From contig JAXGLO010000001.1 of assembly GCA_040769125.1 (NCBI GenBank), forward strand, positions 656,069-720,068: a stretch of DNA of 64,000 bases, in the 5' to 3' direction. The translations under genes were made by a program, and so were the position numbers. Positions 6,970 through 28,759 of this stretch are shown piece after piece; position 1 is the stretch's first letter, and each line of letters opens with the position of its first letter. Below the pieces are notes generated by a model. That model saw only the letters and a list, made by a program, of their open reading frames with translations. It was not told the origin of the DNA and did not search any database. The DNA comes from Thermoleophilia bacterium. Lineage in GTDB: Bacteria; Actinomycetota; Thermoleophilia; UBA2241.

Positions 6970-7084
6970 GGCATGAATGCGGCATTCGCGGTCGCCGGCG
7001 AGACTCCTTCGCTGCGACTGCGGCGCGTGCCGCCGTCTGCCGGGCGATGGCGGAGCTCCGGGCGTCGGCTATAATCGATGCCCC

Positions 7085-13576: not shown

Positions 13577-13987
13577 TCTACAAGACTGTGGCGGCGCAGG
13601 TTTTCCGACCGTCTTACGCAGGCGCTCAGCCGCGGCTGCCGTCTCCCCCCTGCGCCGGCTCCTTCTTCGTCTGCGCCATGCGCGCCACGATGATCGACGC
13701 TTCGCAGAGGGTTGCGATCGGCAAGAGCATCGCGAGCTACGGGAAGGCGTCCGGTCCGGGCGCGATAACTGCAGGAAGCAGCGCTTCTCGTCAGGCGTGA
13801 AGACCGGGGTTCCCGGCGGGGAAGGGCGAAGAAGCTGCCGTAAAGCATAGTTGGCACCCGGGGCAGAGAGATGCCCTGCTCGGCGGCGTCCCACTCGGTT
13901 GCGTGCGTCTTGCGCGCTTTGCTACAGTACGGACGCCGCGGCTGCAGGCAGGCTGCAGTCCCGGATTCGGCGGATGCGGACCTCCAA

Positions 13988-14356
13988 GTGACGAACGCAC
14001 ACCTCATCAACTGGCTCTATGTGTGGCTCTTCATCGCGGCTGGCGGTGCGCTGGTGGTTCTCATCCTGCTTGTGTCCAAGGTGGTGAACCCCAGTCACCC
14101 CTCGGTGGAGAAGTTCTCCGCGTACGAATGCGGCATTCCGCCTGTGGGCAGCCCGTGGGCTCCGTTTGCCGTGCGGTACTTCGTCTTCGGCCTTCTCTTC
14201 CTCGTCTTCGACGTGGAGGCGGCCTTCCTGTTCCCGTGGGCGCTGGCGTTTCGCGGTCTCGGCACTGCCGGCTTCGTGGCGGCGCTCGTGTTCATTGCCG
14301 TGCTGGGGTTCGGTCTGCTGTACGTATGGCGTAAGGGGGCGCTCGAGTGGGCCTGA
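13988..14356 (+). CDS. nuoA: NADH-quinone oxidoreductase subunit A
   Basis: GTG at 13988. Three TM helices, with SAYECG and [23 protein letters not shown] signature. Confidence 0.85.
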
Positions 14357-14901
14357 GTGGCGCGACCGGGAAGCTCGCAGGGCTGCGATTCCCGAAGCTT
14401 GAGCATTTCCAGCAGTCCAACATCATCACCACTACGGCCGACCTCGTCTTCAGCTGGGCGCGCTCACACTCCGTGTTCCCCTTCACGTACGGCCTCGCCT
14501 GCTGCGCGATCGAGATGCTGAGTTCCGGCTTCGCCCGCTTCGACGTCTCCCGGTACGGAATGGAGGTGTTCCGGCCTTCGCCTCGTCAGTGCGATCTGAT
14601 GATCGTGGCGGGGACAGTCAGCGAGAAGATGGCGCCTGTGCTGGTGCGGCTCTACGAGCAGATGGCCGAGCCCAAATGGGTGATCAGCCTGGGCTCGTGC
14701 GCCAACAGCGGAGGGCCGTTCTACGACGGCTACGCGGTGGTCAACGGCGTCGACAAGCTGGTGCCCGTCGACGTGTACATCCCCGGCTGCCCGACGCGTC
14801 CCGAGGCGCTCTTTCAGGGGCTGCTCGAGCTTCAGGGCATAATCCAGCAGCACAAGTTCGTGGTCGAGAAGCCGTCCCCGACGCCGGCAGAGAAGGGCTA
14901 A
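14347..14901 (+). CDS. nuoB: NADH-quinone oxidoreductase subunit B
   Basis: [26 protein letters not shown] and IPGCPTRPE (N2 cluster ligands). Confidence 0.9.
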
Positions 14902-14904
14902 GGC

Positions 14905-15399
14905 GTGGCGCTCCAGATCGGCACTAACCCGCTTGCGCTCGACGCGCTTGTCGAGCTGCTCGTCACCGAGTTCGGCGGCGAGCTGCGCGATGTGCGCTCA
15001 CAGGAGCCCTGGACAGTCGTCGCGCGCTGCGAAGCCGCACAGCTGAAGGCCGTCGCGCGGCGCCTTCGCGAGCACGCCGAGGTCGGGTACGAGACGCTCA
15101 ACTTCATCGCCGGAGTCGACAGGGTCTCAAGCCTCGAGGCTGTCTATCACCTCTACTCGTGGAAGACCAATACCTACCTCGAGCTCCACGTCGAGCTGCC
15201 GCGCGAAGCCGCCGAGGTCGGCACCGTCACCGACGTATGGCCGGCGGCCGACTGGCATGAGCGGGAGGCGTGGGACATGCTTGGCATTCGCTTCGCCGGT
15301 CACCCCGACCTGCGCCGGATCCTTCTCAAGGACGACTTCGTCGGCCACCCGCTGCGCAAGGACTACGTCGATAGCGCCAGGAACCACCCGCATGTTTGA
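14905..15399 (+). CDS. nuoC: NADH-quinone oxidoreductase subunit C
   Basis: 164 aa. VWPAADWHEREAWDMLGIRFAGHPDLRRILL is the 30-kDa subunit signature. Confidence 0.9.
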   Translation: MALQIGTNPLALDALVELLVTEFGGELRDVRSQEPWTVVARCEAAQLKAVARRLREHAEVGYETLNFIAGVDRVSSLEAVYHLYSWKTNTYLELHVELPREAAEVGTVTDVWPAADWHEREAWDMLGIRFAGHPDLRRILLKDDFVGHPLRKDYVDSARNHPHV

Positions 15400-16606
15400 C
15401 CACTTCGCGACACCTGAGCCCGACGAGGCGCTCAAGCTCGCGTTGCGGCGCATCGAGGAGTCGAAGGATCGCGGCGAGGGCTCCGACCTCGAGGGCCTCG
15501 CCCTCAACGAGGTCGTGGTCAACATGGGGCCGCAGCACCCTTCCACGCACGGCGTTCTGCGCCTGCTGGTCACGCTGGACGGCGAGCTCGTCAAGGACGT
15601 CATCCCCGTCATCGGGTACCTGCACCGCTGCAAGGAGAAGCTGGCCGAGAAGCGCACCTACTACCAGTACATCCCGATCCTCGATCGCACCGAGTACGTC
15701 GCGGGCATTAACTGTGAATGGGCGTACGTGATGACGGTCGAGAAACTCGCCGGGATTACACCGACGCGGCGGGCGGAGTTCATCCGCGTCGCCACCGCCG
15801 AGCTCAACCGTATCGCCAGCCACCAGGTGGCGCTCGGCACCTTCACCGCCGACCTCTCCCCTCTGGGGACGGCCATGGCCTTCTATTCGTTCCGCGACCG
15901 CGAGCTGATCCTCGACCTCCTCGAGGAGGTTAGCGGCGGGCGCATGATGTTCAACTATTTCCGCTTCGGCGGCGTCCGCGACGACCTTCCCGACGGCTGG
16001 GTCGAGAAGTGCCGCGACCTCATGCGGCGGATGCCGAAGCTCATTGACGAGTACGAGGCGCTGCTCGACGACAACGCCACCTTCCTGCAACGCTGCGTGG
16101 GTAAAGGTGTCATCAGCCAGCAGGACGTCGTCGACTACGGCATCACCGGCCCCAACGCGCGCGCCTCGGGTGTCGCGCTGGATCTCCGCCGCACGCGGCC
16201 GTACTCCGTGTACCCGGAACTCGACTTCGCAGTCTGCACCGCCACCCACGGCGACATCTTCGACCGCTACAGAGTGCGTATCGACGAGATGCGTGAATCG
16301 GCCAAGATCGTCGAGCAGTGCCTCGACATGATGCCCGGCGGTCCGGTGCGCCTCGGCTCGCGGCGCGCGCCCTACGTCATCGCGCCGCCGCCCGGCGCCT
16401 GCTATGTCGGCCTGGAGAACCCCCGCGGCGAGTTCGGCACGTACATTGTGAGCGACGGGTCGCGGTATCCGTACCGGCTCAAGTTCCGCGACCCCTGCTT
16501 CTGCAACCTGCAGATCTTTCCCAAGCTCCTGCGTGGCAACAAGATCGCCGACGCGGTGGCCATCTCGGGGAGCATCGACCTGATTCTGGGAGGGATCGAC
16601 CGCTAG
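15392..16606 (+). CDS. nuoD: NADH-quinone oxidoreductase subunit D
   Basis: ATG at 15392 (8-nt overlap with nuoC). NMGPQHPSTHGVLRL, the 49-kDa signature, and C-terminus ISGSIDLILGGIDR. Confidence 0.9.
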   Translation: MFDHFATPEPDEALKLALRRIEESKDRGEGSDLEGLALNEVVVNMGPQHPSTHGVLRLLVTLDGELVKDVIPVIGYLHRCKEKLAEKRTYYQYIPILDRTEYVAGINCEWAYVMTVEKLAGITPTRRAEFIRVATAELNRIASHQVALGTFTADLSPLGTAMAFYSFRDRELILDLLEEVSGGRMMFNYFRFGGVRDDLPDGWVEKCRDLMRRMPKLIDEYEALLDDNATFLQRCVGKGVISQQDVVDYGITGPNARASGVALDLRRTRPYSVYPELDFAVCTATHGDIFDRYRVRIDEMRESAKIVEQCLDMMPGGPVRLGSRRAPYVIAPPPGACYVGLENPRGEFGTYIVSDGSRYPYRLKFRDPCFCNLQIFPKLLRGNKIADAVAISGSIDLILGGIDR

Positions 16607-17734
16607 ATGGATCTCATGGAGCTCATCCTCGGCGTACTTCGCGCCCTGCTCTTTGTGGTGATCGCCTACGCGGTGGTGTTCGTGGCGGCGCTCGTCAACA
16701 TCATCTTCGAACGTCGCGCTCTCGCGGTCATGCAGGATCGCCTCGGGCCCAACCGCACCGGGCCACAGGGTGTATTCCAGAGCGTCGCCGACGCCTTCAA
16801 GATGATTGGCAAGGAGGACTTCCGGCCGACGCTCGCCGACCCGTATCTCTTCACGCTGGCGCCGATTCTGGTCATGTTTGGCGCCGTTGCCATACAGGTC
16901 GTGCTCCCGTACACGGGCGGCCTCATGGCGACCGATCTCGACGTCGGAATCATCTTCATCGTCGCAATCTCCAGCTTCACGACGCTGGCCCTCCTGCTCG
17001 GCGGCTGGTCCTCGCGCAACAAGTGGTCACTGGTCGGGGCGCTTCGCGCCGCCGCTCAGATGATCTCTTACGAGGTGCCCATGATCCTCGGCCTGCTGGT
17101 CGTCGCCATGATCGTGGGCTCGCTCAGCCTCAAGGACGTCGTGGCCGCCCAGGCCGGTTACCAGTGGATCGCGTTCTACGCGCCCTTCACCTTCCTGCTC
17201 TTCTACATCCCGTCGATCGCCGAACTTAATCGCGGCCCGTTCGACCTTCCCGAATCCGAGTCCGAGCTCGTCGGCGGCTACGGCACCGAGTACTCAGGAA
17301 TGCGGTTCGGCATGTTCTTCCTCAACGAGTATGCGGGAATGACCATCATGTCGATGGTGGTCGTCACCTTGTTCTTCGGCGGCTGGCAAGGGCCGTGGGC
17401 GGACGCCGTGGTCTTCTGGGGCGTCTCCTGGATCGGCCTCCTGTGGTTCGTCCTCAAGGCGTACATCCTCGTTTTCACGCTGATCTGGGTCCGGCTCACG
17501 TTACAGCGCCTGCAGGCCGACCAGCTCATGGCCTTCGCCTGGAAGGTCCTCATCCCATTGGGCTTCCTCAACATCCTGGGGAGCGCCGCCGTCATTCTGT
17601 GGGCGCCTCACTGGAAGATCGCAATGGCCATCTTCAGCTGGGCCTCCCTGATCGCCTTCGTGGCCCTCTTCGACCCGATCCTCAAGTGGCGTCTGCGTAA
17701 GCAGCGCGAGCGCCTCCCGGTGGTGAACGCCTGA
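16607..17734 (+). CDS. nuoH: NADH-quinone oxidoreductase subunit H
   Basis: Starts immediately after the nuoD stop. ERRALAVMQDRLGPNRTGPQGVFQSVADAFK and AELNRGPFDLPESESELVGGY motifs. Confidence 0.9.
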   Translation: MDLMELILGVLRALLFVVIAYAVVFVAALVNIIFERRALAVMQDRLGPNRTGPQGVFQSVADAFKMIGKEDFRPTLADPYLFTLAPILVMFGAVAIQVVLPYTGGLMATDLDVGIIFIVAISSFTTLALLLGGWSSRNKWSLVGALRAAAQMISYEVPMILGLLVVAMIVGSLSLKDVVAAQAGYQWIAFYAPFTFLLFYIPSIAELNRGPFDLPESESELVGGYGTEYSGMRFGMFFLNEYAGMTIMSMVVVTLFFGGWQGPWADAVVFWGVSWIGLLWFVLKAYILVFTLIWVRLTLQRLQADQLMAFAWKVLIPLGFLNILGSAAVILWAPHWKIAMAIFSWASLIAFVALFDPILKWRLRKQRERLPVVNA

Positions 17735-18495
17735 TGCTCGGCATTATCAAAGCGATGTGCACGACGCTGAGTCATCTGCCCAAGAAGAAGACCACCGTGC
17801 AGTACCCTGAGCAGCGCGAGCTCCTGCCTGAGCGCAGTCGCGGCCTCATCCGGATGGTCGTCGACCCGGAGACTGGTGAGCCGCGGTGCCGCGCGTGCAC
17901 GGTCTGCGAGACCACCTGCCCTGCGCAGGTGATCCGGGTCAACTACGAGAGCACGTACGATCTCCCGGCCCCCAACGCGGCGCGCATCGCCGAGGTGCGT
18001 CTGGCCGTGCAGCCTGACGTCGATCTCACGCTGCTCCAGCCGGTGATCGACGACCAGCGTGAGCACGGCAAGGAGATCATCGCCGTGCTGCAGAATGTGC
18101 AAGACGTTTACGGCTATCTGCCGCGGGCTGCGCTGCAGGAGGTCGCCCTCCAGACCGGCACGCCGCTCTCGCAGATCTACGGCGTCTCCAGCTTCTACAA
18201 CCAGTTCCGGCTGTCGCCCATCGGCAAGCGCCTCATCGATGTGTGTCACGGTACGGCCTGCCACGTCGCCGGGGCGCCGCAGATCACTGAGGCTCTCGAA
18301 GAGGAGCTGGGCATCGCCGACGGCAAGACGACCAGCGACAGGGAGTTCACGCTGAGCTCCGTGGTGTGCATGGGCGCGTGCTCGCAGGCGCCCGTCATGC
18401 GTATCGGCGACCAGACCTTCGGCAATCTCACCCCCGACAAGACACGCAGGATCATCCGCGACCTCATGACGCAGGTCGGGGCCAAGAAGGGGTGA
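17734..18495 (+). CDS. fusion protein: NuoI N-terminal half (single CxxCxxCxxxCP motif) + NuoE-type thioredoxin-like [2Fe-2S] domain
   Basis: aa 1-70 (MLGIIKAMCTTLSHLPKKKTTVQYPEQRELLPERSRGLIRMVVDPETGEPRCRACTVCETTCPAQVIRV) align with the NuoI N-terminus through its first ferredoxin motif. aa ~115-245 are NuoE-like (VCHGTAC...CMGACSQAP, i.e. Cx4C...Cx3C). TGATG overlap with nuoH. Confidence 0.8.
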   Translation: MLGIIKAMCTTLSHLPKKKTTVQYPEQRELLPERSRGLIRMVVDPETGEPRCRACTVCETTCPAQVIRVNYESTYDLPAPNAARIAEVRLAVQPDVDLTLLQPVIDDQREHGKEIIAVLQNVQDVYGYLPRAALQEVALQTGTPLSQIYGVSSFYNQFRLSPIGKRLIDVCHGTACHVAGAPQITEALEEELGIADGKTTSDREFTLSSVVCMGACSQAPVMRIGDQTFGNLTPDKTRRIIRDLMTQVGAKKG

Positions 18496-18506
18496 CGCGA
18501 AACCAT

Positions 18507-20417
18507 ATGACCGACGATCTCACCAGGAACACGGCCCAGAGCGGCGGCGAGCAGGCCGCCGAGGCGCGCAACGTCAAGGTCTCGCAGGCCGCCGACGGCC
18601 GCTTGCGCGTGAGCGTGTGCGCCGGCACGGCCTGCGTGTTCGCGGGGTCGATGGCCGTCCACGACGCCTTCGTCGAGGAGGTCGAGGCGGCGGGGCTCAA
18701 AGACCGGGTCGAGGTCTCGATCATCGGCTGCCACGGCCTCTGCACGCAGAGCCCCGTGGTCGTCGCCTCGGACGACGTGTTCTACGGCAAGGTCAAGCTT
18801 AAGGACGTCAAGGCGATTGTCGGCGAGCATCTGGTGGACGGCGCCCCGGTCGAGAGGCTCATCTACAAGGATCCCGCGACCGGCGAGGCCGTGCGCGACT
18901 GGCACGAGATCGGGTTCTACCGTGAGCAGACACGTATCGCCCTGCGCAACGTGGGCATCGTCAACCCCGAGAGCATCGACGATGCGCTGGCGCGCGGCAG
19001 CTACGAAGCGGCGCGTACGGCGCTTACGACGATGACGCCGGACGAGATCATCGAGCTGGTGGAAGCGTCCGGCATCCGTGGGCGCGGTGGCGCCGGGTTC
19101 CCCACCGGCGCCAAGTGGCGGGTCGCGCGACAGTCCTCGGGGGACGAGAAGTACGTCATCTGCAACGGCGACGAGGGCGACCCCGGCGCGTTCATGGACG
19201 CCTCCATCATGGACGGCGATCCGCACGCCGTGCTCGAGGGCATGCTGATCGCCGGCTTCGCGATCGGCGCACACGAGGGCTACATCTTCGTGCGCGCCGA
19301 GTACCCCCTGGCGGTCAGGCGCCTCAGAGCGGCGATCGCCGCCGCCGAGGAGCGCGGGTATCTCGGCGACGATATCTTCGGCTCCGGCTGGCGGTTCCGC
19401 GTTCATCTCAAGCTCGGCGCGGGCGCCTTCGTCTGTGGCGAGGAGACCGCGCTCATCGCCTCGATCGAGGGCCGGCGGGGCACGCCGCGCGTGCGGCCGC
19501 CATACCCCGCCGTCTCCGGCCTCGGCGGCAAGCCGACCAGCATCAACAACGTCGAGACTCTAGCGAACATCCCGTGGATCGTCACGCACGGAGCCGAGGC
19601 GTACAGCGAGCTCGGCTGTGATGCCAGTTGCGGCACCAAGGCCTTCTCGCTGGCCGGCAAGATCGTCAACGGCGGTCTCGCTGAGGTTCCCATGGGCTCA
19701 ACCCTGCGCCACCTCATCTTCGAGGTCGGCGGCGGCGTCAAGGACGGCAGGGAGTTCAAGGCCGTCCAGCTCGGCGGCCCTTCGGGCGGTTGTCTGCCCG
19801 CGGCCCTGCTCGACACGGCGATCGACTACGAGAGTCTGGCCGCCACCGGCGCCATCGTCGGGTCGGGCGGCATGGTGGTCATGGACGACCAGACCTGTAT
19901 GGTCGACCTCGCACGGTTCTTCCTGCATTTCACGCAGAAGGAAAGCTGCGGCAAGTGCGTCCCCTGCCGTCTTGGCACGAAGCGCATGCTCGAGATCCTC
20001 GACCGCATCTGTGCTGGTCAGGGCTGCGAAGGCGACATCGAGATCCTCGAGGAGCTTGCCCACTCCATCATCGAAGGCTCGCTGTGTGCTCTGGGTGGCA
20101 CGGCGCCCAACCCCGTGCTCACGACGATCAGGTACTTCCGCGACGAATACGAGGCGCATATCCGCGAGAAGCGCTGCCCCGCTGGCGCGTGCAAGGCGCT
20201 CATCACCTACTACATCGATCCGGAGGCCTGCACCGGTTGCACCTTGTGCGTCAAGAAGTGCCCCAGTCAGGCGATCACCGGCGAGAAGAAGCAGCCGCAC
20301 GTCATCGACGCGGCGGGCTGTATCAAGTGCGATACGTGCCGTCAGGTGTGCAAGTTCGACGCCGTCAAGGTGCGCTCGGGCATCCCGCAGGCGGCCGGCG
20401 TGGACGGGGAGGGGTGA
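18507..20417 (+). CDS. nuoF: NuoF/HydB-type flavoprotein (FMN, NADH site, N3 cluster) with extra N-terminal [2Fe-2S] and C-terminal 2x[4Fe-4S] domains
   Basis: N-terminal VCAGTAC...GCHGLCTQSP; GRGGAGFPTGAKW (FMN); ICNGDEGDPGAF (NADH); ESCGKCVPCR...SLCALG (N3). C-terminal CTGCTLCVKKCP and CIKCDTCRQVC. Confidence 0.85.
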   Translation: MTDDLTRNTAQSGGEQAAEARNVKVSQAADGRLRVSVCAGTACVFAGSMAVHDAFVEEVEAAGLKDRVEVSIIGCHGLCTQSPVVVASDDVFYGKVKLKDVKAIVGEHLVDGAPVERLIYKDPATGEAVRDWHEIGFYREQTRIALRNVGIVNPESIDDALARGSYEAARTALTTMTPDEIIELVEASGIRGRGGAGFPTGAKWRVARQSSGDEKYVICNGDEGDPGAFMDASIMDGDPHAVLEGMLIAGFAIGAHEGYIFVRAEYPLAVRRLRAAIAAAEERGYLGDDIFGSGWRFRVHLKLGAGAFVCGEETALIASIEGRRGTPRVRPPYPAVSGLGGKPTSINNVETLANIPWIVTHGAEAYSELGCDASCGTKAFSLAGKIVNGGLAEVPMGSTLRHLIFEVGGGVKDGREFKAVQLGGPSGGCLPAALLDTAIDYESLAATGAIVGSGGMVVMDDQTCMVDLARFFLHFTQKESCGKCVPCRLGTKRMLEILDRICAGQGCEGDIEILEELAHSIIEGSLCALGGTAPNPVLTTIRYFRDEYEAHIREKRCPAGACKALITYYIDPEACTGCTLCVKKCPSQAITGEKKQPHVIDAAGCIKCDTCRQVCKFDAVKVRSGIPQAAGVDGEG

Positions 20418-20423
20418 TGTAGC

Positions 20424-22898
20424 GTGGCGACGACCGCTGACGACGTCATGCGCGCTCAGGCTCAGCGCCCCGACCAGATCACGCTGACCATCGACGGCCA
20501 CGAGGTCCGCTGCGACCGCGGCGAGACGATCCTGGAGGCGGCGCGGCGCGTGGGCGTCTACATCCCCACGCTCTGCCACGAGCCGCGCCTGCCGGCCACT
20601 GCCGCCTGCCGCGTCTGCCTCGTGGAGGTGGAGGGCGCCCGCAAGACGGTTCCCAGCTGCTCCACGGCCGCCGCTGAGGGCATGGTCGTGCACACGCAGA
20701 CCGAGAAGGTCCGCGCCATGCGCCGCCTCTACCTCGAGCTCCTGCTCAGCGACCACAGCTCCTTCTGCACGCCACCCTGTCGCGACGCCTGCCCCACGCA
20801 CATCAAGATCCCACAGTTCCTGGATCTGATCGCGCACGGCGACTACAGGAACGGCGTTCGCAAGCTGCGTGAGGATCTGCCCTTCCCGTCCGTTCTGGGA
20901 CGCGTCTGCCCGCGGCCCTGCGAGAGTTCCTGTCGCCGGGATCTCGCCGACAACCCCATCTCGATCTGCTGGCTGCATCGCTTCATGGGCGACCAGTGCC
21001 TCGATGAGCAGCAGGACGGCGAGCTGCTGCTGCCTGTCGATCCCAAACCTGAGAGCGGCAAGCGCATCGCCATCGTCGGCGGCGGCCCCGCCGGCCTCTC
21101 CGCCGCCTTCTACTCCCGGCTCGAGGGCCACGCGGTCAAGATCTTCGAGGCGCAGGCCAAGCCCGGCGGTATGCTGCGCTACGGCATTCCCAGCTATCGC
21201 ATGCCTCGCGAGGTGCTCGACAAGGAGCTGAACATCCTCTGGCGCATGGGCGTCGAGCTCCAGACAGACGTACGCCTCGGCGTCGACTTCCAGCTCGGCG
21301 ATCTTCGCGACGAGTACGACGCCGTATTCCTCGCCCTGGGCGCCTTCAACTCGAACGAAATGAAGATCCCCGGCGAGGACGCCGACGGCGTCGTCACCGC
21401 CATCGATTTCCTCGGCGACCTCGAGCGCGACGGCACCGTCCACGTCGGCAACAAGGTCACCGTCATCGGCGGCGGCTTCACCGCCATGGACGCCTGCCGC
21501 ACCGCCGTGCGCCTCGGTGCAGAAGAGGTCACCTGTCTCTACCGGCGCTCGCGCAAGGAGATGCCCGCCCACTACACCGAGGTCGACGAGGCCGAGGAGG
21601 AGGGCGTCAAGCTGGAGCTGCTGGTGGCGCCGGTGCGCATCATGGTCGAAGGCAACAAGGTTGCCGGCATCGAGATGCAGCGCATGGAGCTCGGCGAGCC
21701 CGACGCCTCCGGCCGCCGTCGCCCCGTGCCCGTCGAGGGGTCGGAGTTCGTCATCGAGTGCGACCAGGTTGTCGCTGCCATCGGCCAGTATCCCAAACTC
21801 GACGGCACCAGCGAGGAGCAAGGCATCAAGCGCACTCGCTGGCGCACGATCGAGGTCGACGACTGGACGCTGCAGACCGCCGACCCCAAGGTCTTCGCCG
21901 GCGGCGACGTCGTGCTCGGCGCGCAGACCGTCGTCCAGGCGATCGCCCAGGGCAAGAAGGCCGCCTGGAGCATCGACGCCTTCTTGCGCGGCGCCGACAT
22001 GAAGGATGTCTCCCGGCAGCTCGCCGAGCTCAAGGCGTCGCCGTTCCTGGCCGCGCTTTCTCAGAAGGACGACCTCGACCCGCGTATCGCACGCCTCGCC
22101 GAGATCCCGCCGGTGTTCATCGACATGACTACCGACGTTACGCATCCAGCGCCGCCGGCTGAGATGCCCAGGCTCACGCCCGACGAACGCAAGACCAACT
22201 TCGAGCAGATCGAGTTCGGGCTCCACGAGGACGTTGCGGTGAACGCCGCCAAGCTCTGCCTGCAGTGTCACTGCCCGGCCAACGGCTCGTGCGAGCTGCA
22301 GAAGCTCGGCATCGAATACGAGGTCTTCGAGAACCGGTTCCACGGCGGCGAGACGCACGACTACCCCGCCGACTTCCGCCACGATTTCGTCATGCGCGAG
22401 CCCAACCGCTGCATCAACTGCGGTCGCTGCGTCGAGGTCTGCCGGCAGGAGATCGGGGCGAGCTGCTACGACTTCATGGGCCGCGGTTTCGACGCCATCG
22501 TCTCGACTCCCGACAACCTCCCGCTGCACATGGTCGGCTGCATCTCCTGTGGCAAGTGTGCCGAGACATGCCCCACCGGTGCGATCACCACCAACCCGCG
22601 GCTGCTCATCCGCTACGATCTCGACGAGAGCCGCTGCATCTTCTGCGGCGACTGCGTCGAGGCGTGCCCCTACGATGCGCTGGAGCAGACGAGCTACTTC
22701 GAGCTGGCCAGCTATAGTCGCACGGATCTGGTGCAGGAGTCGCTGTACGTACGCGAGCCACGCCCCGCCGATGGCCTCGGGGAGACGGTGCCCGACCAGG
22801 CGCCTCATACCCGCGACAGCCAGCGCGGCCGCGGCTGGGTCTGGACTCCCATCAAGGACGAGCCCGTAGTGCTCGACGACTCGGAGGGGGGCGCCTGA
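20424..22898 (+). CDS. multidomain protein: NuoG/HydA-type [2Fe-2S] + GltD/NfnB-like FAD/NAD(P)H oxidoreductase + NuoG/HydA-type [4Fe-4S] domains + NuoI C-terminal half
   Basis: aa 18-100: plant-type [2Fe-2S] (LCH..ACRVC..PSCS). aa ~105-525: GltD-like (FCTPPCRDACPTHIKIPQF, VCPRPCESSC, IVGGGPAGL, VIGGGFTAMD...LYRRS). aa 610-722: CLQCHCPANGSCELQ, CINCGRCVEVC and CISCGKCAETCPTGAI. aa 725-775: LIRYDLDESRCIFCGDCVEACPYDALEQTSYFELASYSRTDL, which is the NuoI second motif plus the NuoI C-terminal signature. Confidence 0.8.
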   Translation: MATTADDVMRAQAQRPDQITLTIDGHEVRCDRGETILEAARRVGVYIPTLCHEPRLPATAACRVCLVEVEGARKTVPSCSTAAAEGMVVHTQTEKVRAMRRLYLELLLSDHSSFCTPPCRDACPTHIKIPQFLDLIAHGDYRNGVRKLREDLPFPSVLGRVCPRPCESSCRRDLADNPISICWLHRFMGDQCLDEQQDGELLLPVDPKPESGKRIAIVGGGPAGLSAAFYSRLEGHAVKIFEAQAKPGGMLRYGIPSYRMPREVLDKELNILWRMGVELQTDVRLGVDFQLGDLRDEYDAVFLALGAFNSNEMKIPGEDADGVVTAIDFLGDLERDGTVHVGNKVTVIGGGFTAMDACRTAVRLGAEEVTCLYRRSRKEMPAHYTEVDEAEEEGVKLELLVAPVRIMVEGNKVAGIEMQRMELGEPDASGRRRPVPVEGSEFVIECDQVVAAIGQYPKLDGTSEEQGIKRTRWRTIEVDDWTLQTADPKVFAGGDVVLGAQTVVQAIAQGKKAAWSIDAFLRGADMKDVSRQLAELKASPFLAALSQKDDLDPRIARLAEIPPVFIDMTTDVTHPAPPAEMPRLTPDERKTNFEQIEFGLHEDVAVNAAKLCLQCHCPANGSCELQKLGIEYEVFENRFHGGETHDYPADFRHDFVMREPNRCINCGRCVEVCRQEIGASCYDFMGRGFDAIVSTPDNLPLHMVGCISCGKCAETCPTGAITTNPRLLIRYDLDESRCIFCGDCVEACPYDALEQTSYFELASYSRTDLVQESLYVREPRPADGLGETVPDQAPHTRDSQRGRGWVWTPIKDEPVVLDDSEGGA

Positions 22899-23410
22899 TG
22901 CCTGGTGGCGACTTCCACCCCTGGCTGTTCGTAATGGTTGCGGCGTGGGTCCTCATCTGCGGGCTCGGCGTCGTGCTCTTCAGAAACATCGTGTACTCTG
23001 CCGTCGCGATGGTGTTCTGCTTCCTCGGCATTGCCTTCGCCTACGCCCTGCTCAATTCGGCGCTTCTGGCGATCGTGCAGATCCTCGTCTACGTCGGCGC
23101 CATCTCGGTGGTGATCATCTTCGCGATCATGCTCACTGAAAAGCGGAAGGGCGGCTTCGACCTGTTCTTCAACCGCCAGACGGTGGTAGCGGCGCTTGTC
23201 GCGATCGCCGGCGCCGTCGCGCTTGCCGTGGCGGTCGGCGGCGCCGGGCTCGGCGCTGTGGTTCCCAAGGCGTTCAACCCCGGGGTGCGGCGGCTCTCCC
23301 AGATCCTGTTCGACCGCTTTGTCTTCCCGTTCGAGCTGGTGTCGCTGGTTCTGGTAGCCGCCATGGTTGGCGCCATCGTTCTCTCGCTCAAGAAGGAGGA
23401 GCGGCCGTGA
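22898..23410 (+). CDS. nuoJ: NADH-quinone oxidoreductase subunit J
   Basis: TGATG overlap with the preceding gene. 5 TM; LLAIVQILVYVGAISVVIIFAIML signature. Confidence 0.85.
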   Translation: MPGGDFHPWLFVMVAAWVLICGLGVVLFRNIVYSAVAMVFCFLGIAFAYALLNSALLAIVQILVYVGAISVVIIFAIMLTEKRKGGFDLFFNRQTVVAALVAIAGAVALAVAVGGAGLGAVVPKAFNPGVRRLSQILFDRFVFPFELVSLVLVAAMVGAIVLSLKKEERP

Positions 23411-23715
23411 GCGCCCTCTCGTGGTGGCTTGTTCTGGCGTCTCTGCTCTTCTGCATCGGCGCCTTCGGCGTGCTTTCGAGGCGCAACATCATCCAGGTGG
23501 TGATGAGCCTCGAGGTGATGCTCAACGCCGTCAACCTGGCGCTCGTGGCGATCGCCAACTTCCGCGGCGGCTCCGAGGGCGCCGGCACGCTCTTCTCGTT
23601 GTTCATCATCGCCGTGGCGGCCGCCGAGGTCGCCGTGGGTCTCGCCATCATCATCGCCAACTATCGCAATAAGCGGACCGTCCAGGTGGATCGGTTCGAC
23701 GAGCTCAAGGGCTAG
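23407..23715 (+). CDS. nuoK: NADH-quinone oxidoreductase subunit K
   Basis: 102 aa, 3 TM; SLEVMLNAVNLALVA...AVAAAEVAVGLAII. Confidence 0.9.
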   Translation: MSALSWWLVLASLLFCIGAFGVLSRRNIIQVVMSLEVMLNAVNLALVAIANFRGGSEGAGTLFSLFIIAVAAAEVAVGLAIIIANYRNKRTVQVDRFDELKG

Positions 23716-23727
23716 GCAGGAGCGCGC

Positions 23728-25665
23728 GTGGAAGCAGCAGTACAGCAGATCGTGGTGGAGGGTACGCAGTCCCTGAAGGCTGCGGTAGCGCTGATCCCAC
23801 TGCTGCCGCTGGCCGGATTCCTGCTCACCCTGCTCTTCGGCAAGCGGATGGGCGAGCGGGCGCACGTGCTGCCCGTGGCTCTCGTCACCGCCACGGCCGC
23901 CCTCTCGGTGTACGTCTTCGTGTGGGCCTTCCGGCACCCTGGGGAGGCGTTCGTCTGGGACGCGTTCTCCTGGATCGTCGCCGGTGGTTACTCGGTGCAG
24001 TGGGGCTTTCTCGTCGACCCGCTCACCGGCATCATGCTGCTGGTCGTCGGCCTTATCGGCATGCTGGTGCACTATTACTCGATCGGCTACATGAAGGGCG
24101 ACGGCGGCTACTACCGCTTCTTCGCCTATCTCAACCTCTTCATGTTCGCGATGTTCATGCTCATCCTCGCGGACAACTACCTGCTGCTCTTCCTCGGCTG
24201 GGAGGGCGTCGGCCTCTGCTCGTACCTGCTCATCGCGTTCTGGTTCCGCAAGAAGAGCGCGAGCCAGGCCGGCAAGAAGGCGTTCCTGGTCAACCGTGTA
24301 GGCGATTTCGGTTTCCTGCTGGCGATGTTCCTCATCTTCGTCACGACCGGCACGCTGCAGTTCACGGGCGTCTTCGACAAGGCTGAGATGATCGGATCGG
24401 GCACGCTCCTCTGTATCTGTCTGCTGCTCTTCACCGGTGCGGTCGGCAAGAGCGCCCAGTTCCCGCTGCACGTGTGGCTGCCCGATGCCATGGAGGGTCC
24501 CACGCCGGTCAGCGCCCTCATTCACGCCGCCACGATGGTCAACGCCGGCGTCTACATGGTGGCGCGCTCGTATCCGCTGTACATCAACGCGGAGACGGCG
24601 ATGCTCGTGGTCATGGCCGTCGGCGCCTTCACCGCGATCTACTCGGCCTACATCGCGATCACCCAGAACGACATCAAGAAGGTGATCGCCTACTCGACCA
24701 TCTCGTCACTGGGATTCATGTTCCTTGCGCTCGGCGCGGGGGCGTGGACGGCCGGCATCTTCTACCTCTTCGTGCACGGCTTCTTCAAGGGCCTCCTCTT
24801 CCTGTGCTCCGGCTCGGTGATCCATGCTGTGGGCGGCGAGCAGGACATGCGGCGGATGGGAGGGCTGCACACGCGTATCCCGATCACCTTCTGGACGATG
24901 CTCATCGGCGCGATCGCGCTCATCGGCGTCTTCCCGTTCGCGGGCTTCTGGGCCAAGGACGAAATCCTGGGCGGCGCCTTCATGGGCGGCTACTACGTGG
25001 TTTGGGCAGTCGGCATCGTCACAGCCTTCCTCACGGCGATCTTCGCCTTCCGCATGATCTTCCTCACCTTCTTCGGCGAGTGCCGGGCGCCCGCCGAGGT
25101 CCAGAGCCACATCCACGAGTCGCCATGGGTCATGACCCTGCCGCTCGTGCTGCTGGCTATCCCTTCTGTGGCTGCGGGCGTCCTCGTCGGCTGGCCGCCG
25201 GAGTCCGGCTGGATCCACTCGTTCCTGGCGCCCGTGTTCTTCGACGCCAAGCATCACGAGTTCAGCTGGCTCGGCGTCGGCGGCGGCCTCATGGTTCTCT
25301 CGGTGGCCGTCGCGCTGCTGGGCGTCTACGTCGCCTACGTGATGTACATGCGTCGTACGGAGCTGCCTGGCCAGCTTGCGCAGCGCTTCCCGGCGGCCTA
25401 CAGGGCTTCGCTGAACAAGCTGTACATGGATGAGGCGTACGAGGTCGTGCCGATCCGCAGCACGATCGGCCTCGCCACCTGGCTGTGGAAGTTCTTCGAC
25501 GTCCGCGTCATCGACGGTGCGGTCAACGGTGTGGCCCGGCTGTGGGGCGGCTTCGGTGCGCGTCTGCGCCCGCTGCAGACTGGGCAGGTGCAGAACTACG
25601 CGCTCTCGATCTTCGCCGGCATGGTCATCCTGGTCGTCGTCCTCGCCTGGATCTGGGGGGCCTGA
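23728..25665 (+). CDS. nuoL: NADH-quinone oxidoreductase subunit L
   Basis: 645 aa antiporter-like subunit. GWEGVGLCSYLLIAFW, KSAQFPLHVWLPDAMEGPTPVSALIHAATMV. Confidence 0.9.
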   Translation: MEAAVQQIVVEGTQSLKAAVALIPLLPLAGFLLTLLFGKRMGERAHVLPVALVTATAALSVYVFVWAFRHPGEAFVWDAFSWIVAGGYSVQWGFLVDPLTGIMLLVVGLIGMLVHYYSIGYMKGDGGYYRFFAYLNLFMFAMFMLILADNYLLLFLGWEGVGLCSYLLIAFWFRKKSASQAGKKAFLVNRVGDFGFLLAMFLIFVTTGTLQFTGVFDKAEMIGSGTLLCICLLLFTGAVGKSAQFPLHVWLPDAMEGPTPVSALIHAATMVNAGVYMVARSYPLYINAETAMLVVMAVGAFTAIYSAYIAITQNDIKKVIAYSTISSLGFMFLALGAGAWTAGIFYLFVHGFFKGLLFLCSGSVIHAVGGEQDMRRMGGLHTRIPITFWTMLIGAIALIGVFPFAGFWAKDEILGGAFMGGYYVVWAVGIVTAFLTAIFAFRMIFLTFFGECRAPAEVQSHIHESPWVMTLPLVLLAIPSVAAGVLVGWPPESGWIHSFLAPVFFDAKHHEFSWLGVGGGLMVLSVAVALLGVYVAYVMYMRRTELPGQLAQRFPAAYRASLNKLYMDEAYEVVPIRSTIGLATWLWKFFDVRVIDGAVNGVARLWGGFGARLRPLQTGQVQNYALSIFAGMVILVVVLAWIWGA

Positions 25666-25666
25666 C

Positions 25667-27256
25667 ATGAGCTGGAGCACGCAGGTGGGCTTCCCGATCC
25701 TCTCCACCATAACGTTCATACCGCTGCTGGGCGTGGCTCTTATCTTGCTCGTCGGCCGCGGCCGCCCGCAGGTGTACAAGGTCATTTCGCTGGCCGTGAC
25801 CCTCGGCGCCTTCGCGCTGGCTCTCTGGATGATGCTGGCCTTCGACACGGCCGCGCGCGGCATGCAGTTCGTCGAGGACGTCGTGTGGATCCGCGCCTTC
25901 AACATCCACTACGGCATGGGCGTCGACGGCATCGCTGCCCTTCTGCTTTTCCTCACCACGCTGCTCGGCGTGATCGTCATTGTGGGGAGCTGGAACTACG
26001 TCAAGGACCGCGAGATGGGCTTCTTCATCTCGCTCCTCCTGCTGCAGGTCGGCATGTCGGGCGTGTTCTGCGCCACCGATCTCTTCCTCTTCTACGTGTT
26101 CTGGGAGGCCATGCTGGTGCCGATGTACTTCATCATCGGCATCTGGGGCGGCCCGCGGCGCATCTACGCCGCCATCAAGTTCTTCCTGTTCACGCTGATC
26201 GGCAGCCTGCTCATGCTCGTCGCGATCATCGCCGTTGTGCTCTACGTCAAGGGCAACGCTGTGGGGGGCATCACCTTCGACATTCAGGCCCTGAGCGACC
26301 AGGTCTACCCGTACGGCCTGCAGTTCTGGGCCTTCCTCGCGTTCTTCGTCGCCTTCGCCATCAAGGTGCCCATGTTCCCGGTGCACACCTGGTTGCCGGA
26401 CGCCCACGTGGAGGCGCCCACGGCAGGCTCGGTGGTCCTCGCCGGCGTTCTGCTCAAGATGGGCGGCTACGGTATTCTGCGCTTCTGCCTGCCGTTCTTC
26501 CCGGACGCGGCGGTAGCCTTCATTCCTTTCGCCGTCGTGCTCTCGGTGATCGCCATCGTCTACGGCGCTCTGGTCTCGCTGATGCAGAAGGACCTCAAGA
26601 AGCTGGTCGCGTACTCGAGTGTGAGCCACATGGGCTTCGTGACTGTCGGTATCTTCGCCTCCATCGCCGTGGCCGGCAACGCTGCAGGCATGGAGGGGGC
26701 CATCATCGTGATGTTCAGCCACGGCCTGCTCACCGGCGCCCTCTTCCTCCTGGTGGGATACCTTTACGAGCGCACGCGCACACGCCAGATCGCGGACATG
26801 AGTATGCTGGCCACGCCGTTGCCCGTGCTCGCTGGGTTCCTCCTGTTCTTCGTGCTGGGCTCGCTGGGGCTGCCGGGGCTGAGCGGCTTCGTCGGCGAGT
26901 TCCTCAGCCTGCTCGGGCTCTTCGCCTACTCGCACTGGCTGGCGGTCGTGGCCGCCACCGGCGTCATCCTGGCCGCCTGCTACCTGCTCTGGATGTTCCA
27001 GCGCACGATGTTCAACGATCGCGGCGACGCCGCCGTCAAGCCGGCGCTCACCATGCCCGATCTCAGCGTTCGTGAGATCGCCACGCTCCTGCCGCTCGTG
27101 GCGCTCGCGGTCTGGGTGGGCGTGTACCCCAACACCTTCCTCGAGTTCCTGCACGTGCCCGTACAGGAGATCCTCGACCAGGTGACGCCGTCGCTGCAGA
27201 CTGCGCAGGGCGGCGGGCTGGCGCAGCTCGTCGAGTTCACGAGGGGGTTGTTCTAG
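25667..27256 (+). CDS. nuoM: NADH-quinone oxidoreductase subunit M
   Basis: ATG at 25667, just after the nuoL stop. FWEAMLVPMYFIIGIWGG, KVPMFPVHTWLPDAHVEAPTAGSVVLAGVLLKMGGYG. Confidence 0.9.
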   Translation: MSWSTQVGFPILSTITFIPLLGVALILLVGRGRPQVYKVISLAVTLGAFALALWMMLAFDTAARGMQFVEDVVWIRAFNIHYGMGVDGIAALLLFLTTLLGVIVIVGSWNYVKDREMGFFISLLLLQVGMSGVFCATDLFLFYVFWEAMLVPMYFIIGIWGGPRRIYAAIKFFLFTLIGSLLMLVAIIAVVLYVKGNAVGGITFDIQALSDQVYPYGLQFWAFLAFFVAFAIKVPMFPVHTWLPDAHVEAPTAGSVVLAGVLLKMGGYGILRFCLPFFPDAAVAFIPFAVVLSVIAIVYGALVSLMQKDLKKLVAYSSVSHMGFVTVGIFASIAVAGNAAGMEGAIIVMFSHGLLTGALFLLVGYLYERTRTRQIADMSMLATPLPVLAGFLLFFVLGSLGLPGLSGFVGEFLSLLGLFAYSHWLAVVAATGVILAACYLLWMFQRTMFNDRGDAAVKPALTMPDLSVREIATLLPLVALAVWVGVYPNTFLEFLHVPVQEILDQVTPSLQTAQGGGLAQLVEFTRGLF

Positions 27257-28759
27257 ATGGGCGCCAACAACGCCGTCGTCATCATTCTGCCGGCCCTCGT
27301 CGTGGTGGCCGCAGCCATTCTGGTCTTCGCCGTCGACATGTTCATTTCGCGCAAGACGCCGTTGGCCTGGGTTGCCGGCGGCGGGCTCGCCGTTGCTATC
27401 GGCGTGGCGCTGGGCCAGTGGGTGACTTTCGGCGAGGGCCTCGCCTTCGACCGCCGTGGCCCGGAGACCGGCTTCGCCGACATGGTTTCGCTCGACACCT
27501 ACGCGCTGTACGCTACCGTGCTCTTCTGCCTGGTGGGCATCGCCACCATCATGCTGTCGGACGCCTATCTGGCGCGGCGCAAGGCCGCGCGCGGCGAGTT
27601 TTACGGCCTGCTGCTGCTCATCACCACGGGCATGATCGCCATGGCGCAGAGCACCGACATCATCGCCTTCTTTGTCTCGTTCGAGCTGGTGTCGCTGCCC
27701 ACGTACGTACTCGCCGGCTACATCTGGCGCGACGAGCGCTCCGGTGAGGCGTCGATTAAATACTTCGTCAACGGCGCCTTCGCCTCGGCGATCCTCGCTT
27801 TCGGCCTGGCGCTCGCCTATGGTGCCACCGGCCAGACGAGCTACGCCGGCATCGCCCGGGGCATCTCGGCTATCGACGGCGGCGACGCTCAGGCCATGGT
27901 GGTCGCCGCGTTCGTGCTCATCGTCACCGGCTTCGGCTTCAAAGTGAGCGCCGTGCCGTTCCACAGCTGGGCGCCGGACGTCTACGAGGGCGCCCCCACG
28001 CCGGTCACCGCCTTCATGTCGGTGGGCGTCAAGGCGGCGGCTTTCATGGGCTTCGCCAAGCTCTTCGTCATGGCGGCGCAGCCGCAGTCGCAGACCTGGG
28101 TCGACGCCATGATCGTTCTGGCCGTGCTCACCATGGTCGTGGGGAACGTGCTGGCCCTGCCGCAGCAGAACCTCAAGAGAATGCTCGCCTATTCCAGCAT
28201 CGGCCACGCCGGCTACCTTCTGCTGGGGCTCATCGCCGCCGGCACGACCGGCGACGGGGCAGGCGTGGGCGCCGTCCTGTTCTATCTGGCGGTCTACGCC
28301 TTCATGAACCTTGGCGCCTTCGGCGTGCTCATCTGGATCCGCAGCCGCCGCGCCTACCGGTACACGCTCGGTGAGGTCGGCGGCCTCGCGCGCACCATGC
28401 CGTGGGCGGCGATCCTGATGGCGCTGCTGATGGTGTCGCTCGCGGGCATCCCGCCGACCGCCGGGTTCTGGGGCAAGTTCTACCTCTTCACCGCCGTTGT
28501 GCACGCCGATTTCACGTGGCTGGCCATCCTCGCCGTCGTGATGAGTGCCGTGTCGGCGTACTACTATCTGCGCGTCGTGTGGTACATGTTCTTCCGCGAG
28601 GCACCGGAGGGCCAGGAGGTTCACCCGGAGCCGGATTCGTCGCAGGTGGGCGTCGCCGCCGCCGTCGGCATCGCGGCGCTGGCCGTGATGGCCGTCGGCG
28701 TCTTCCCGCAACAGCTTCTCGAAGCCGCCCAGGGCGCTCTGCGCCTCTTCGGCGGCTGA
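27257..28759 (+). CDS. nuoN: NADH-quinone oxidoreductase subunit N
   Basis: Starts at the nuoM stop. FELVSLPTYVLAG, FKVSAVPFHSWAPDVYEGAPTPVTAFMSVG. Confidence 0.9.
   Translation: MGANNAVVIILPALVVVAAAILVFAVDMFISRKTPLAWVAGGGLAVAIGVALGQWVTFGEGLAFDRRGPETGFADMVSLDTYALYATVLFCLVGIATIMLSDAYLARRKAARGEFYGLLLLITTGMIAMAQSTDIIAFFVSFELVSLPTYVLAGYIWRDERSGEASIKYFVNGAFASAILAFGLALAYGATGQTSYAGIARGISAIDGGDAQAMVVAAFVLIVTGFGFKVSAVPFHSWAPDVYEGAPTPVTAFMSVGVKAAAFMGFAKLFVMAAQPQSQTWVDAMIVLAVLTMVVGNVLALPQQNLKRMLAYSSIGHAGYLLLGLIAAGTTGDGAGVGAVLFYLAVYAFMNLGAFGVLIWIRSRRAYRYTLGEVGGLARTMPWAAILMALLMVSLAGIPPTAGFWGKFYLFTAVVHADFTWLAILAVVMSAVSAYYYLRVVWYMFFREAPEGQEVHPEPDSSQVGVAAAVGIAALAVMAVGVFPQQLLEAAQGALRLFGG

Follow-up and report, generated by a model that had tools for sequence, protein, structure and literature searches.

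An NfnABC/StnABC-type module flanked by the two halves of NuoI in a complex I operon of uncultured Thermoleophilia

Introduction

How is an electron-input module attached to the membrane arm of complex I when NuoI, the subunit that connects the two, is encoded in two pieces on two different proteins? This question is raised by a stretch of 64,000 nucleotides from a Thermoleophilia bacterium (NCBI GenBank assembly GCA_040769125.1, contig JAXGLO010000001.1, positions 656,069 to 720,068 of the forward strand). We refer to this whole stretch as the window, and all coordinates are counted from its first nucleotide. The window contains an operon of 13 genes, nuoA-B-C-D-H-[I(N)::E]-F-[G'::I(C)]-J-K-L-M-N, all of them intact and translationally coupled. 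A first-pass annotation, made from the sequence without database searches, had drawn attention to one product of this operon, a protein of 824 amino acids (aa), and had described it as a chimera of iron-sulfur (FeS) and GltD-like domains that ends in a missing half of NuoI.

We found that both halves of NuoI are encoded in the operon, each fused to a different subunit of a three-gene module of the NfnABC/StnABC type. This architecture is well supported by gene structure, homology, and the conservation of ligands and of the whole arrangement across a clade. We consider it fairly probable that an Nfn-type Bfu module has been inserted in nuoI, that NuoI re-forms from its halves, and that the enzyme passes electrons from NADH, NADPH and probably ferredoxin to menaquinone while pumping protons. 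From the architecture we infer the assembly of NuoI in trans, the route from cluster A4 to N6, the substrates, and the direction of electron flow.

Results

The 824-aa protein ends in the C-terminal half of NuoI

The gene for the 824-aa protein lies at 20424-22898 (+), exactly as first annotated, with a GTG start and the sequence GGAGG ~12 nucleotides upstream of it. The domain order had also been read correctly. Pfam matches follow one another as Fer2_4 (aa 18-93), Fer4_20 (aa 115-195), Pyr_redox_2 (aa 214-510), Fer4_Nqo3 (aa 655-722) and Fer4 (aa 733-754), and the NCBIfam model PRK12814 (Fer2+GltD+FeS) spans aa 18-675 (E = 9e-196). The motifs that had been quoted for the protein all lie where they had been placed. 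The NuoG model TIGR01973 aligns only to aa 21-115, and no molybdopterin domain was found in the protein with Pfam or NCBIfam, in agreement with the proposal that the corresponding C-terminal domain of NuoG is missing.

What follows the last NuoG-type cluster site is a piece of NuoI. In the full-length protein, positions 71-117 of the 121 positions of the NuoI model TIGR01971 correspond to aa 726-772. This region contains the second CxxCxxCxxxCP motif of NuoI (C738, C741, C744, C748, P749). When the C-terminal 102 aa were searched alone, the 11 best NCBIfam matches were all to NuoI, NdhI, HycF or HyfH; TIGR01971 scored 49.3 bits (positions 72-117), and generic ferredoxin families scored at most 27 bits. 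Comparison with proteins in the PDB gave the same picture: the tail aligned in a single stretch to NuoI/TYKY at ~50 bits, and polyferredoxins scored at most 19 bits per repeat. Judged by these scores, the C-terminal piece is NuoI-specific and not a generic ferredoxin domain.

The first-pass annotation had limited the NuoI match to aa 725-775, correctly converted to nucleotides 22596-22748. Its assignment to NuoI held, and its extent proved too short. NuoI of M. smegmatis (8e9g_I) also covers the conserved C-terminal tail, so that the NuoI-derived part, with a tail of the actinobacterial type, runs to ~aa 814 (22596-22865).

The N-terminal half of NuoI is fused to a NuoE-like protein

The other half of NuoI is not on the 824-aa protein; we found it two genes upstream, in a protein of 253 aa encoded at 17734-18495 (+). 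Its aa 8-74 match positions 2-66 of TIGR01971 (57.3 bits) and include the first CxxCxxCxxxCP motif (C52, C55, C58, C62, P63). The NuoI part as a whole occupies aa 1-74 (17734-17955). The rest of the polypeptide (17956-18495) consists of a linker and a thioredoxin-fold [2Fe-2S] domain like NuoE and BfuC (Pfam 2Fe-2S_thioredx, E = 1e-46). Thus, as had been proposed, the module is covalently tied to both halves of NuoI, to the N-terminal half through the NuoE-like protein and to the C-terminal half through the 824-aa protein.

Joined in silico, the two halves align as one NuoI. We joined aa 1-73 of the NuoE fusion to aa 722-824 of the 824-aa protein and obtained one uninterrupted match to positions 2-117 of the 121 positions of TIGR01971. 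The score rose to 109.2 bits, in effect the two single scores added up, and single-stretch alignments were found to mitochondrial and bacterial NuoI/TYKY in the PDB, with 83.6 bits to 9f5x_G. Since the joined halves align as one stretch, the split lies in the NuoI loop that connects its two cluster motifs; approximately five positions of TIGR01971 are lost there. No intact, single-polypeptide nuoI was found in the operon or in the 64-kb window. A tblastn search of the window also found no second nuoI, nuoG or nuoE and no paralogue of the module genes.

The location of the split has a consequence for cluster binding. In the 2x[4Fe-4S] ferredoxin fold, each cluster is held by three Cys of one motif and the Cys that precedes the Pro of the other motif. 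One half of NuoI alone therefore cannot bind a complete cluster, because its fourth Cys comes from the other motif, and the two halves would have to pair in trans. The module holds exactly two unpaired cluster motifs, one on each fusion protein.

The gene order points to an insertion. In the operon nuoD is directly followed by nuoH, with no nuoEFG between them, and when the three-gene insert is taken out nuoI is restored between nuoH and nuoJ. The result is the order of 11-subunit-type operons, A-B-C-D-H-I-J-K-L-M-N. Both borders of the insert, nuoH/[I(N)::E] and the 824-aa gene/nuoJ, consist of a 1-nucleotide TGATG overlap of stop and start codons.

The inserted module resembles NfnABC and StnABC

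We found that the best solved relatives of all three subunits are those of NfnABC and StnABC (PDB 9BOV, 9N5U and 8OH5). This bears out the earlier suggestion that a NuoE-like protein, a HydB-type NuoF-like protein and a GltD-like protein with HydA/NuoG FeS domains form a set of the StnABC type. With phmmer, the 824-aa protein matched NfnA of C. saccharolyticus (9bov_A, E = 1.3e-190, aa 20-743) and StnC of S. ovata (8oh5_C, E = 1.7e-164), as well as NfnA of T. sibiricus (9n5u_A); NfnL, GltD and DPD scored far lower. Identity to NfnA and StnC is 43-47% over ~710 residues. The alignment stops at about aa 725-748, and the last ~100 aa are the NuoI-like part. The word chimera thus applies to the fusion with the C-terminal half of NuoI, whereas the [2Fe-2S]-GltD-FeS layout before it is already known from NfnA and StnC. 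What is new is the pair of NuoI fusions and the location of the module within a nuo operon.

The cofactor sites of the 824-aa protein can be assigned by alignment to these relatives. The [2Fe-2S] domain (aa 18-100; 20475-20723) has the site of cluster A1, the equivalent of N1b, with C51, C62, C65 and C79. It is followed by a unit like GltD and NfnL (aa ~111-560; 20754-22103, from Fer4_20, Pyr_redox_2 and alignment to 9bov_A and 8oh5_C) with two [4Fe-4S] clusters (A6 and A7), an FAD fold (GGGPAGL), an NADPH fold (GGGFTAMD) and the motif LYRRSR. The HydA/NuoG-type [4Fe-4S] sites (aa 610-722; 22251-22589, from Fer4_Nqo3 and alignment to NfnA/StnC) comprise A3 (C612, C615, C617, C623), A2 (C663-C673) and A4 (C706-C716). 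The stretches GGGPAGL, GGGFTAMDA and LYRRSRKEMPA are identical or nearly identical in NfnA and StnC, so the residues for FAD and NAD(P)H binding that had been claimed for the GltD-like region are in place. R259, the equivalent of R239 of StnC, is conserved, and the Arg residues expected to hold the 2'-phosphate of NADPH are present. In StnC the FAD-proximal [4Fe-4S] cluster is reported to have a strictly conserved Lys ligand, K170 (PMC10482914). The corresponding residue here is His185, and the position of StnC C114 is occupied by Ile129.

The two other subunits also have the features of the bifurcating relatives. For the NuoE-like part the best PDB matches were 9bov_C, 8oh5_A and 9n5u_C, and the ligands of cluster C1 (C171, C176, C212 and C216) are invariant. 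The NuoF-like subunit (636 aa; 18507-20417 (+), ATG at 18507; Pfam and PDB matches) matches HydB, NfnB and StnB over its full length at about 770-792 bits (7t2r_B, 792 bits; also 9bov_B and 8oh5_B), and true NuoF over the core only, at ~370-390 bits. Sites for FMN and NADH are present together with cluster B1, and a [2Fe-2S] cluster (B5) lies at the N-terminus and a 2x[4Fe-4S] pair (B3 and B4) at the C-terminus; all Cys of B1 and of the additional sites B2-B5 align with those of HydB, NfnB and StnB.

The genes for this subunit and for the 824-aa protein share a reading frame in the window, with only TGA-TGT-AGC between them (20415-20426). A fusion of the two by read-through was considered and rejected, as the genes are in different frames at another locus (L001); programmed read-through seems unlikely.

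Structure prediction agreed with these assignments. An AlphaFold2 model of the 824-aa protein (66-sequence alignment) had a mean predicted local distance difference test score (pLDDT) of 83.5 and was confident for aa 17-730. This NfnA-like body and the NuoE domain had pLDDT values of about 85-98, with 93-98 for the GltD unit. The top Foldseek matches of the model were 9bov_A, 8oh5_C and 9n5u_A, over ~713 aligned columns. Both NuoI halves, with each chain folded alone, had pLDDT values below 50, against 80-98 for the domains next to them in models built from the same alignments.

Mapped on the known structures, the two fusion points fall in one place. In NfnABC, electrons follow the path FAD-A7-A6-A3-A2-A1-[B1-FMN-C1]-B3-B4, and A2-A4-A5 is a dead-end branch into a formate dehydrogenase (Fdh)-like domain (PMC11829005). 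The N-terminal domain of NfnC packs on this same Fdh-like domain (PMC11829005). Here, the C-terminal half of NuoI begins 21 residues past the last Cys of A4, and the N-terminal half directly precedes the N-terminal domain that resembles that of NfnC. Each fusion point thus falls at the site of the lost Fdh-like domain.

The split is conserved in a clade of Thermoleophilia

We found the same architecture in many other genomes. The 120 best database matches of the 824-aa protein are 808-880 aa long, 69-100% identical and aligned over their full length, and the named sources among them are metagenome-assembled genomes (MAGs) of Thermoleophilia or Actinobacteria. When an exhaustive library clustered at 50% identity was searched, only a single further representative, P0121 (65% identity), extended over the tail. 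After it the score falls from 1135 to 645 bits, to proteins of the StnC, NfnA and Fdh types that are all at most 49% identical. A scan of 185,579 species-representative genomes gave 105 relatives, and we compared the loci of 80 of the 105 (GTDB species representatives). Every locus with enough flanking sequence has the same 13-gene order. Nearly all relatives are titled Thermoleophilia, Actinomycetes or Actinomycetota, and species-level Thermoleophilia MAGs with the conserved operon number about 65. The relatives were recovered from soils, peat of palsas and bogs, sediment of lakes, anaerobic membrane bioreactors (AnMBR) and digesters. No fusion with a NuoI half was found outside the Thermoleophilia clade, in either the library clustered at 50% identity or the species-representative genomes.

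Two loci carry other labels, Deltaproteobacteria bacterium (L037) and Coriobacteriia bacterium (L080). Both are short contigs with gene copies 77-82% identical, and the labels probably reflect a binning or labelling inconsistency and not an occurrence outside Thermoleophilia.

This recurrence also bears on the quality of the data. The sources are all MAGs, and tblastn matches to several long-read MAG loci show breaks like those from frameshifts, as would be expected if the arrangement were an artefact of assembly or binning, or a pseudogene created by sequencing errors. However, the identical architecture appears across dozens of independent studies and platforms (JGI, ENA, NCBI, Logan), on contigs of up to 2 Mb, and the GC content of the operon is uniform. 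With dozens of independent MAGs sharing both the gene and the operon, chance can be dismissed and an artefact is effectively refuted; we assign the latter almost no probability.

The residues that matter for NuoI are kept throughout. Among 46 distinct family members of the 824-aa protein, the Cys of A1, A2, A3, A4, A6 and A7 as well as His111 and His185 are invariant, and so are C738, C741, C744, C748 and P749 of the NuoI half (46/46). C52, C55, C58, C62 and P63 are invariant in 50/50 sequences of the NuoI(N)::NuoE fusion. The homologues in these sets are 58-82% identical overall, with all eight NuoI Cys and both Pro retained. The Cys of B1, B3, B4 and B5 are likewise invariant in 46/46 BfuB sequences. 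Clustering at 90% identity sorts the NuoI(N)::NuoE fusion into at least 120 clusters, all with a uniform length of 250-253 aa.

These results speak to the idea that the NuoI pieces are dead remnants. The module would then be a soluble transhydrogenase like Nfn and Stn, and the membrane genes would work with another NuoI or belong to a defunct complex. The predicted disorder of both NuoI halves when folded alone is consistent with such decay, and the view is limited to 64 kb of the genome. Against this, the NuoI ligands and many NuoI-specific residues other than ligands are invariant in ~50 distinct sequences, the length of the N-terminal fusion hardly varies among its many clusters, and 13/13 genes are intact and coupled. 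In addition, the Fdh-like domain, which mediates tetramerisation and stability of soluble Stn and Nfn (PMC10482914), is gone. We regard decay of the NuoI pieces as very improbable.

The public names of these proteins do not mention NuoI. Members of the 824-aa family (e.g., P0006, P0021, P0031 and P0273) are called 'formate dehydrogenase major subunit', 'FAD-dependent oxidoreductase' or 'glutamate synthase beta subunit-like/formate hydrogenlyase subunit', and the NuoI(N)::NuoE fusion is called just 'NuoE'. Because the halves go unrecognised, automated pathway calls would report a complex I without NuoI and NuoG.

A subclade has a degenerate NADPH site

We found that the FAD and NADPH motifs are intact in ~39 of the 46 relatives, and in 12/12 paralogues (described below). 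The exceptions form a subclade (L056, L041, L038, L035, L036, L034, L001/L002/L082 and L070). Over the region equivalent to aa 344-382 of the window protein, these sequences have GDGFAAxEAC in place of GGGFTAMDAC and a degenerate LYRRSRKEMPA motif, with the FAD fold, the FeS ligands and both NuoI halves kept. Because ~7/46 relatives have lost the NADPH motif, use of NADPH is not a conserved core function of the family.

The enzyme might be, in effect, a Nuo-Bfu, which oxidises NADH and reduced ferredoxin with menaquinone; NADPH would not be physiological, and the GltD unit would be a structural or electron-storing relic of an Fdh-type ancestor. The decayed subclade is what one would expect from this, since its NADPH-binding Rossmann fold and YRR motif are degraded while the FeS ligands, the FAD fold, the Cys of B3-B5 and the NuoI halves are invariant. 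Such chemistry has been predicted for Nuo-Bfu by Schut et al. 2022 (PMC9304861). However, the window copy, most of its relatives and all of the paralogues match the motifs of the NADPH-using NfnA and StnC (GGGFTAMDA, LYRRSRKEMPA, R259). The unit of ~450 aa with its two clusters is also under strong purifying selection, and is modelled at pLDDT 93-98. We consider a Nuo-Bfu without physiological use of NADPH unlikely. On these motifs, the window enzyme likely uses NADPH, and in the lineages with a decayed site the enzyme would be a Nuo-Bfu-like NADH/ferredoxin enzyme.

A formate dehydrogenase fusion is the nearest relative

The nearest relative of the 824-aa protein is a paralogue, ~65% identical, in the same genomes. 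The two share His185 (invariant in the 46 family members and the 12 paralogues) and the signature DACPTHIK. The paralogue has the same [2Fe-2S]-GltD-FeS order, and after A4 it continues into a molybdopterin-binding Fdh domain; it has no NuoE or NuoF neighbours. An in-frame TGA in its IDHCART-U-HAP motif (IDHCART-TGA-HAPTVAG) likely encodes selenocysteine. It was found, for example, at L043:9923-14191 (+), and also at L042, L044-L050, L058 and L068, and in some genomes its distance to the nuo operon is ~25 kb, with L047 and L059 sharing a contig. By its domains, the paralogue looks like a single-polypeptide NADPH-linked formate dehydrogenase or CO2 reductase. In this fusion, with its likely selenocysteine, A4 lies on the functional path, which counts in favor of a similar role for A4 in the 824-aa protein.

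Some database matches of ~810-850 aa were considered as further NuoI fusions and rejected, as they are Fdh fusions truncated at selenocysteine and end in ...DHCARL. These distant entries like StnC and NfnA (P0126, P0147, P0162, P0180, P0195 and P0209) end at ...N(N/S)(I/V)DHCARL, and their gene calls appear to stop at the selenocysteine TGA of GltD-Fdh fusions.

The simplest history would begin with an operon of the 11-subunit type, A-B-C-D-H-I-J-K-L-M-N. A three-gene insert would then have entered the loop between the two motifs of NuoI, with its A subunit taken from the lineage's own GltD-Fdh fusion and the Fdh domain swapped for the C-terminal half of NuoI. The GC content is uniform across the operon, and a recent horizontal acquisition of the insert was rejected on that ground.

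All membrane subunits are encoded, and the N2 and quinone-site motifs are canonical

We found all membrane subunits (NuoA, H, J, K, L, M and N) and the whole Q-module (NuoB, C and D) in the operon, all encoded on the + strand. The gene nuoA (13871-14356; Pfam Oxidored_q4, E = 6.6e-35) is given as the longest open reading frame and probably starts later, as homologues have ~122 aa. It is followed by nuoB (14347-14901; Pfam Oxidored_q6; NCBIfam NuoB 234.7 bits, cut-off 116) and nuoC (14905-15399; Pfam Complex1_30kDa; TIGR01961 above its cut-off). For nuoD (15392-16606; Pfam Complex1_49kDa; NF004739 440.7 bits, cut-off 360) the start was set to the ATG at 15392, after 404-aa homologues. The gene before the insert is nuoH (16607-17734; Pfam NADHdh, E = 1.6e-108; NF004741 above its cut-off). 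After the insert come nuoJ (22898-23410; Pfam Oxidored_q3), nuoK (23407-23715; Pfam Oxidored_q2), nuoL (23728-25665; tblastn matches to itself and paralogues, and Proton_antipo_N and Proton_antipo_M in a homologous locus), nuoM (25430-27256; tblastn and homologous loci; longest open reading frame, start probably near 25670) and nuoN (27257-28759; tblastn and a homologous locus). A scan for promoters and terminators gave nothing informative within the operon.

NuoB carries cluster N2, and its tandem-Cys motif GLACCAIEM is the canonical N2 site. The quinone-site motifs of NuoD, HPSTHG and LDRTEYV, are canonical as well, including the quinone-site His and Tyr. Near its C-terminus (...KFRDPCFCNLQ...), NuoD has two Cys in a DPCFC motif where large subunits of [NiFe]-hydrogenases have DPCxxC. 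This motif may be left over from hydrogenase ancestors, such as have been described for 'ancestral' Nuo operons.

Two adjoining genes at 6977-9465 (+), 4.4 kb upstream of nuoA, resemble indolepyruvate/2-oxoacid:ferredoxin oxidoreductase. They encode a 632-aa protein with POR_N and TPP_enzyme_C domains and a 197-aa protein of the POR gamma type. The pair is a possible local source of reduced ferredoxin.

Discussion

A proposed path for electrons

We propose that the two NuoI halves pair in trans to give a NuoI with clusters N6a and N6b. The rebuilt subunit would sit in the place vacated by the Fdh-like domain, and would dock the module on NuoB, NuoD and NuoH. Electrons from NADH would pass through FMN, B1 and A1 to A2, and electrons from NADPH through FAD, A7, A6 and A3 to A2. 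From A2 both routes would continue through A4 and N6a/N6b to N2 and menaquinone, coupled to proton pumping. The A2-A4 branch leads nowhere in soluble NfnA and StnC; in this complex it would serve as the way out to the membrane arm. The conserved low-potential clusters of BfuB and BfuC (C1, B3, B4 and B5) suggest that reduced ferredoxin is a co-substrate, and it would probably enter by the branch of B3, B4 and C1.

Several points weigh against this proposal. The complex is known from its genes, from homology and from predicted structures of single chains. The joined NuoI halves score just under the curated cut-off of TIGR01971 (109.2 vs 113.05 bits), and the genome may have another nuo operon, of the canonical type, or an unsplit nuoI beyond the visible 64 kb. 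The NADPH fold is degenerate in ~7/46 relatives, which indicates that some members of the clade can do without NADPH oxidation. Since Lys170 of StnC is His185 here, the properties of the FAD-proximal cluster may differ. Lastly, canonical NuoI takes electrons from the His-ligated cluster N5, which corresponds to A3, and not from a cluster of the A4 type; in NfnA, A3 is the cluster that feeds the GltD unit. Because canonical NuoI is fed from N5/A3, the real geometry may differ from the one proposed.

Electrons might also run the other way. Complex I is reversible in principle, and menaquinol with the proton-motive force, or NADPH through the bifurcating site, could normally yield reduced ferredoxin and NAD(P)H for biosynthesis, with the membrane arm providing or taking up the difference in energy, which would make the complex a redox hub or membrane-coupled Nfn. 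The bifurcating BfuBC core is complete and its ferredoxin branch is conserved, and similar reverse flow has been proposed for the complex I variants of Nitrospina and Kuenenia that have additional FeS clusters (PMC3578206). However, no feature of the sequence points to a direction. The hosts from peat, sediment, digesters and soil, together with the 2-oxoacid:ferredoxin oxidoreductase genes in the window, suggest that ferredoxin comes from catabolism and is not scarce. We therefore regard a mainly reverse or hub-like role as rather improbable.

A broader version of the proposal, which we put forward tentatively and think possible at best, is that of a proton-pumping hub for four substrates. 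A complete NfnABC core for flavin-based electron bifurcation would be wired to the menaquinone site through the rebuilt NuoI, and NADH, NADPH, ferredoxin, quinone and the proton-motive force would be interconverted in either direction. The complex would then be a second, independent acquisition of an N-module by a complex I of the 11-subunit type, docked by a split subunit.

If the forward path through the rebuilt NuoI holds, the operon offers a natural case in which a core subunit of complex I is split to serve as a two-point covalent tether for an electron-input module. It bears on how complex I gained its NADH-oxidising module from soluble enzymes of the hydrogenase, Fdh or Nfn type, and it suggests a use for the A2-A4 branch, which in the solved structures of Nfn and Stn is viewed as a remnant without function. 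It also predicts a respiratory enzyme that could feed NADPH, ferredoxin and NADH into the menaquinone pool of uncultured Thermoleophilia, a group with a wide distribution across soils, peat, sediments and digesters.

Comparison with known systems

In the literature we found neither a split NuoI described nor a nuo operon that contains an Nfn-type module; coverage was incomplete, and this is an absence of evidence only. Docking by complementation of a split subunit appears to be undescribed.

The closest counterparts are NfnABC and StnABC. They have the same three types of subunits: an A subunit with [2Fe-2S], GltD (FAD/NADPH) and [4Fe-4S] parts, a B subunit with FMN and B1-B5, and a C subunit with C1. 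In contrast to them, the Thermoleophilia module lacks the C-terminal Fdh/NuoG-like domain with cluster A5 and has half of NuoI instead, its C subunit has the other half of NuoI at the N-terminus, and Lys170 and C114 of StnC are replaced (by His185 and Ile129). NfnABC and StnABC are soluble enzymes in which four ABC heterotrimers assemble, whereas the genes described here lie within a nuo operon.

Nuo-Bfu is similar in genomic setting. It is predicted in Deferribacteres, Proteobacteria, Planctomycetes and Nitrospirae as a 14-subunit cluster (A-N) with BfuABC in place of NuoEFG (PMC9304861). As in the Thermoleophilia operon, a BfuBC core lies inside a nuo cluster, and the predicted enzyme oxidises NADH and ferredoxin with menaquinone and pumps protons (PMC9304861). 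However, BfuA of Nuo-Bfu is of the NuoG type (A1-A5) and its nuoI is a single gene; here there is a GltD insert, no A5, and a split nuoI. The host here belongs to the Actinomycetota, the A subunit is of the Nfn type, and the gene order is that of 11-subunit operons with an insert. The paper on Nuo-Bfu mentions neither a fusion or split of NuoI nor Actinobacteria (PMC9304861).

Canonical complex I, as in T. thermophilus and M. smegmatis (8E9G), shares with the Thermoleophilia complex all membrane subunits, NuoC, N2, the quinone site and the full sequence of NuoI including its tail. The differences are that NuoI is here on two polypeptides, that the molybdopterin-like domain of NuoG is missing, that NuoF has the extra Bfu clusters, and that there is an additional FAD/NADPH site.

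The 11-subunit enzymes related to complex I (NDH-1, Fpo/FpoF) have the same core gene order and an alternative input device at the position of NuoI. In the Mbx-like complex of Thermotoga, a GltD-like flavoprotein replaces NuoI (Degli Esposti 2015, PMC4758237), a precedent for an NAD(P)H flavoprotein of the GltD type on a membrane module like that of complex I. Unlike NDH-1, Fpo and the Mbx-like complex, the Thermoleophilia operon has kept NuoI in split form, with a three-subunit module of the bifurcation type covalently joined to both halves.

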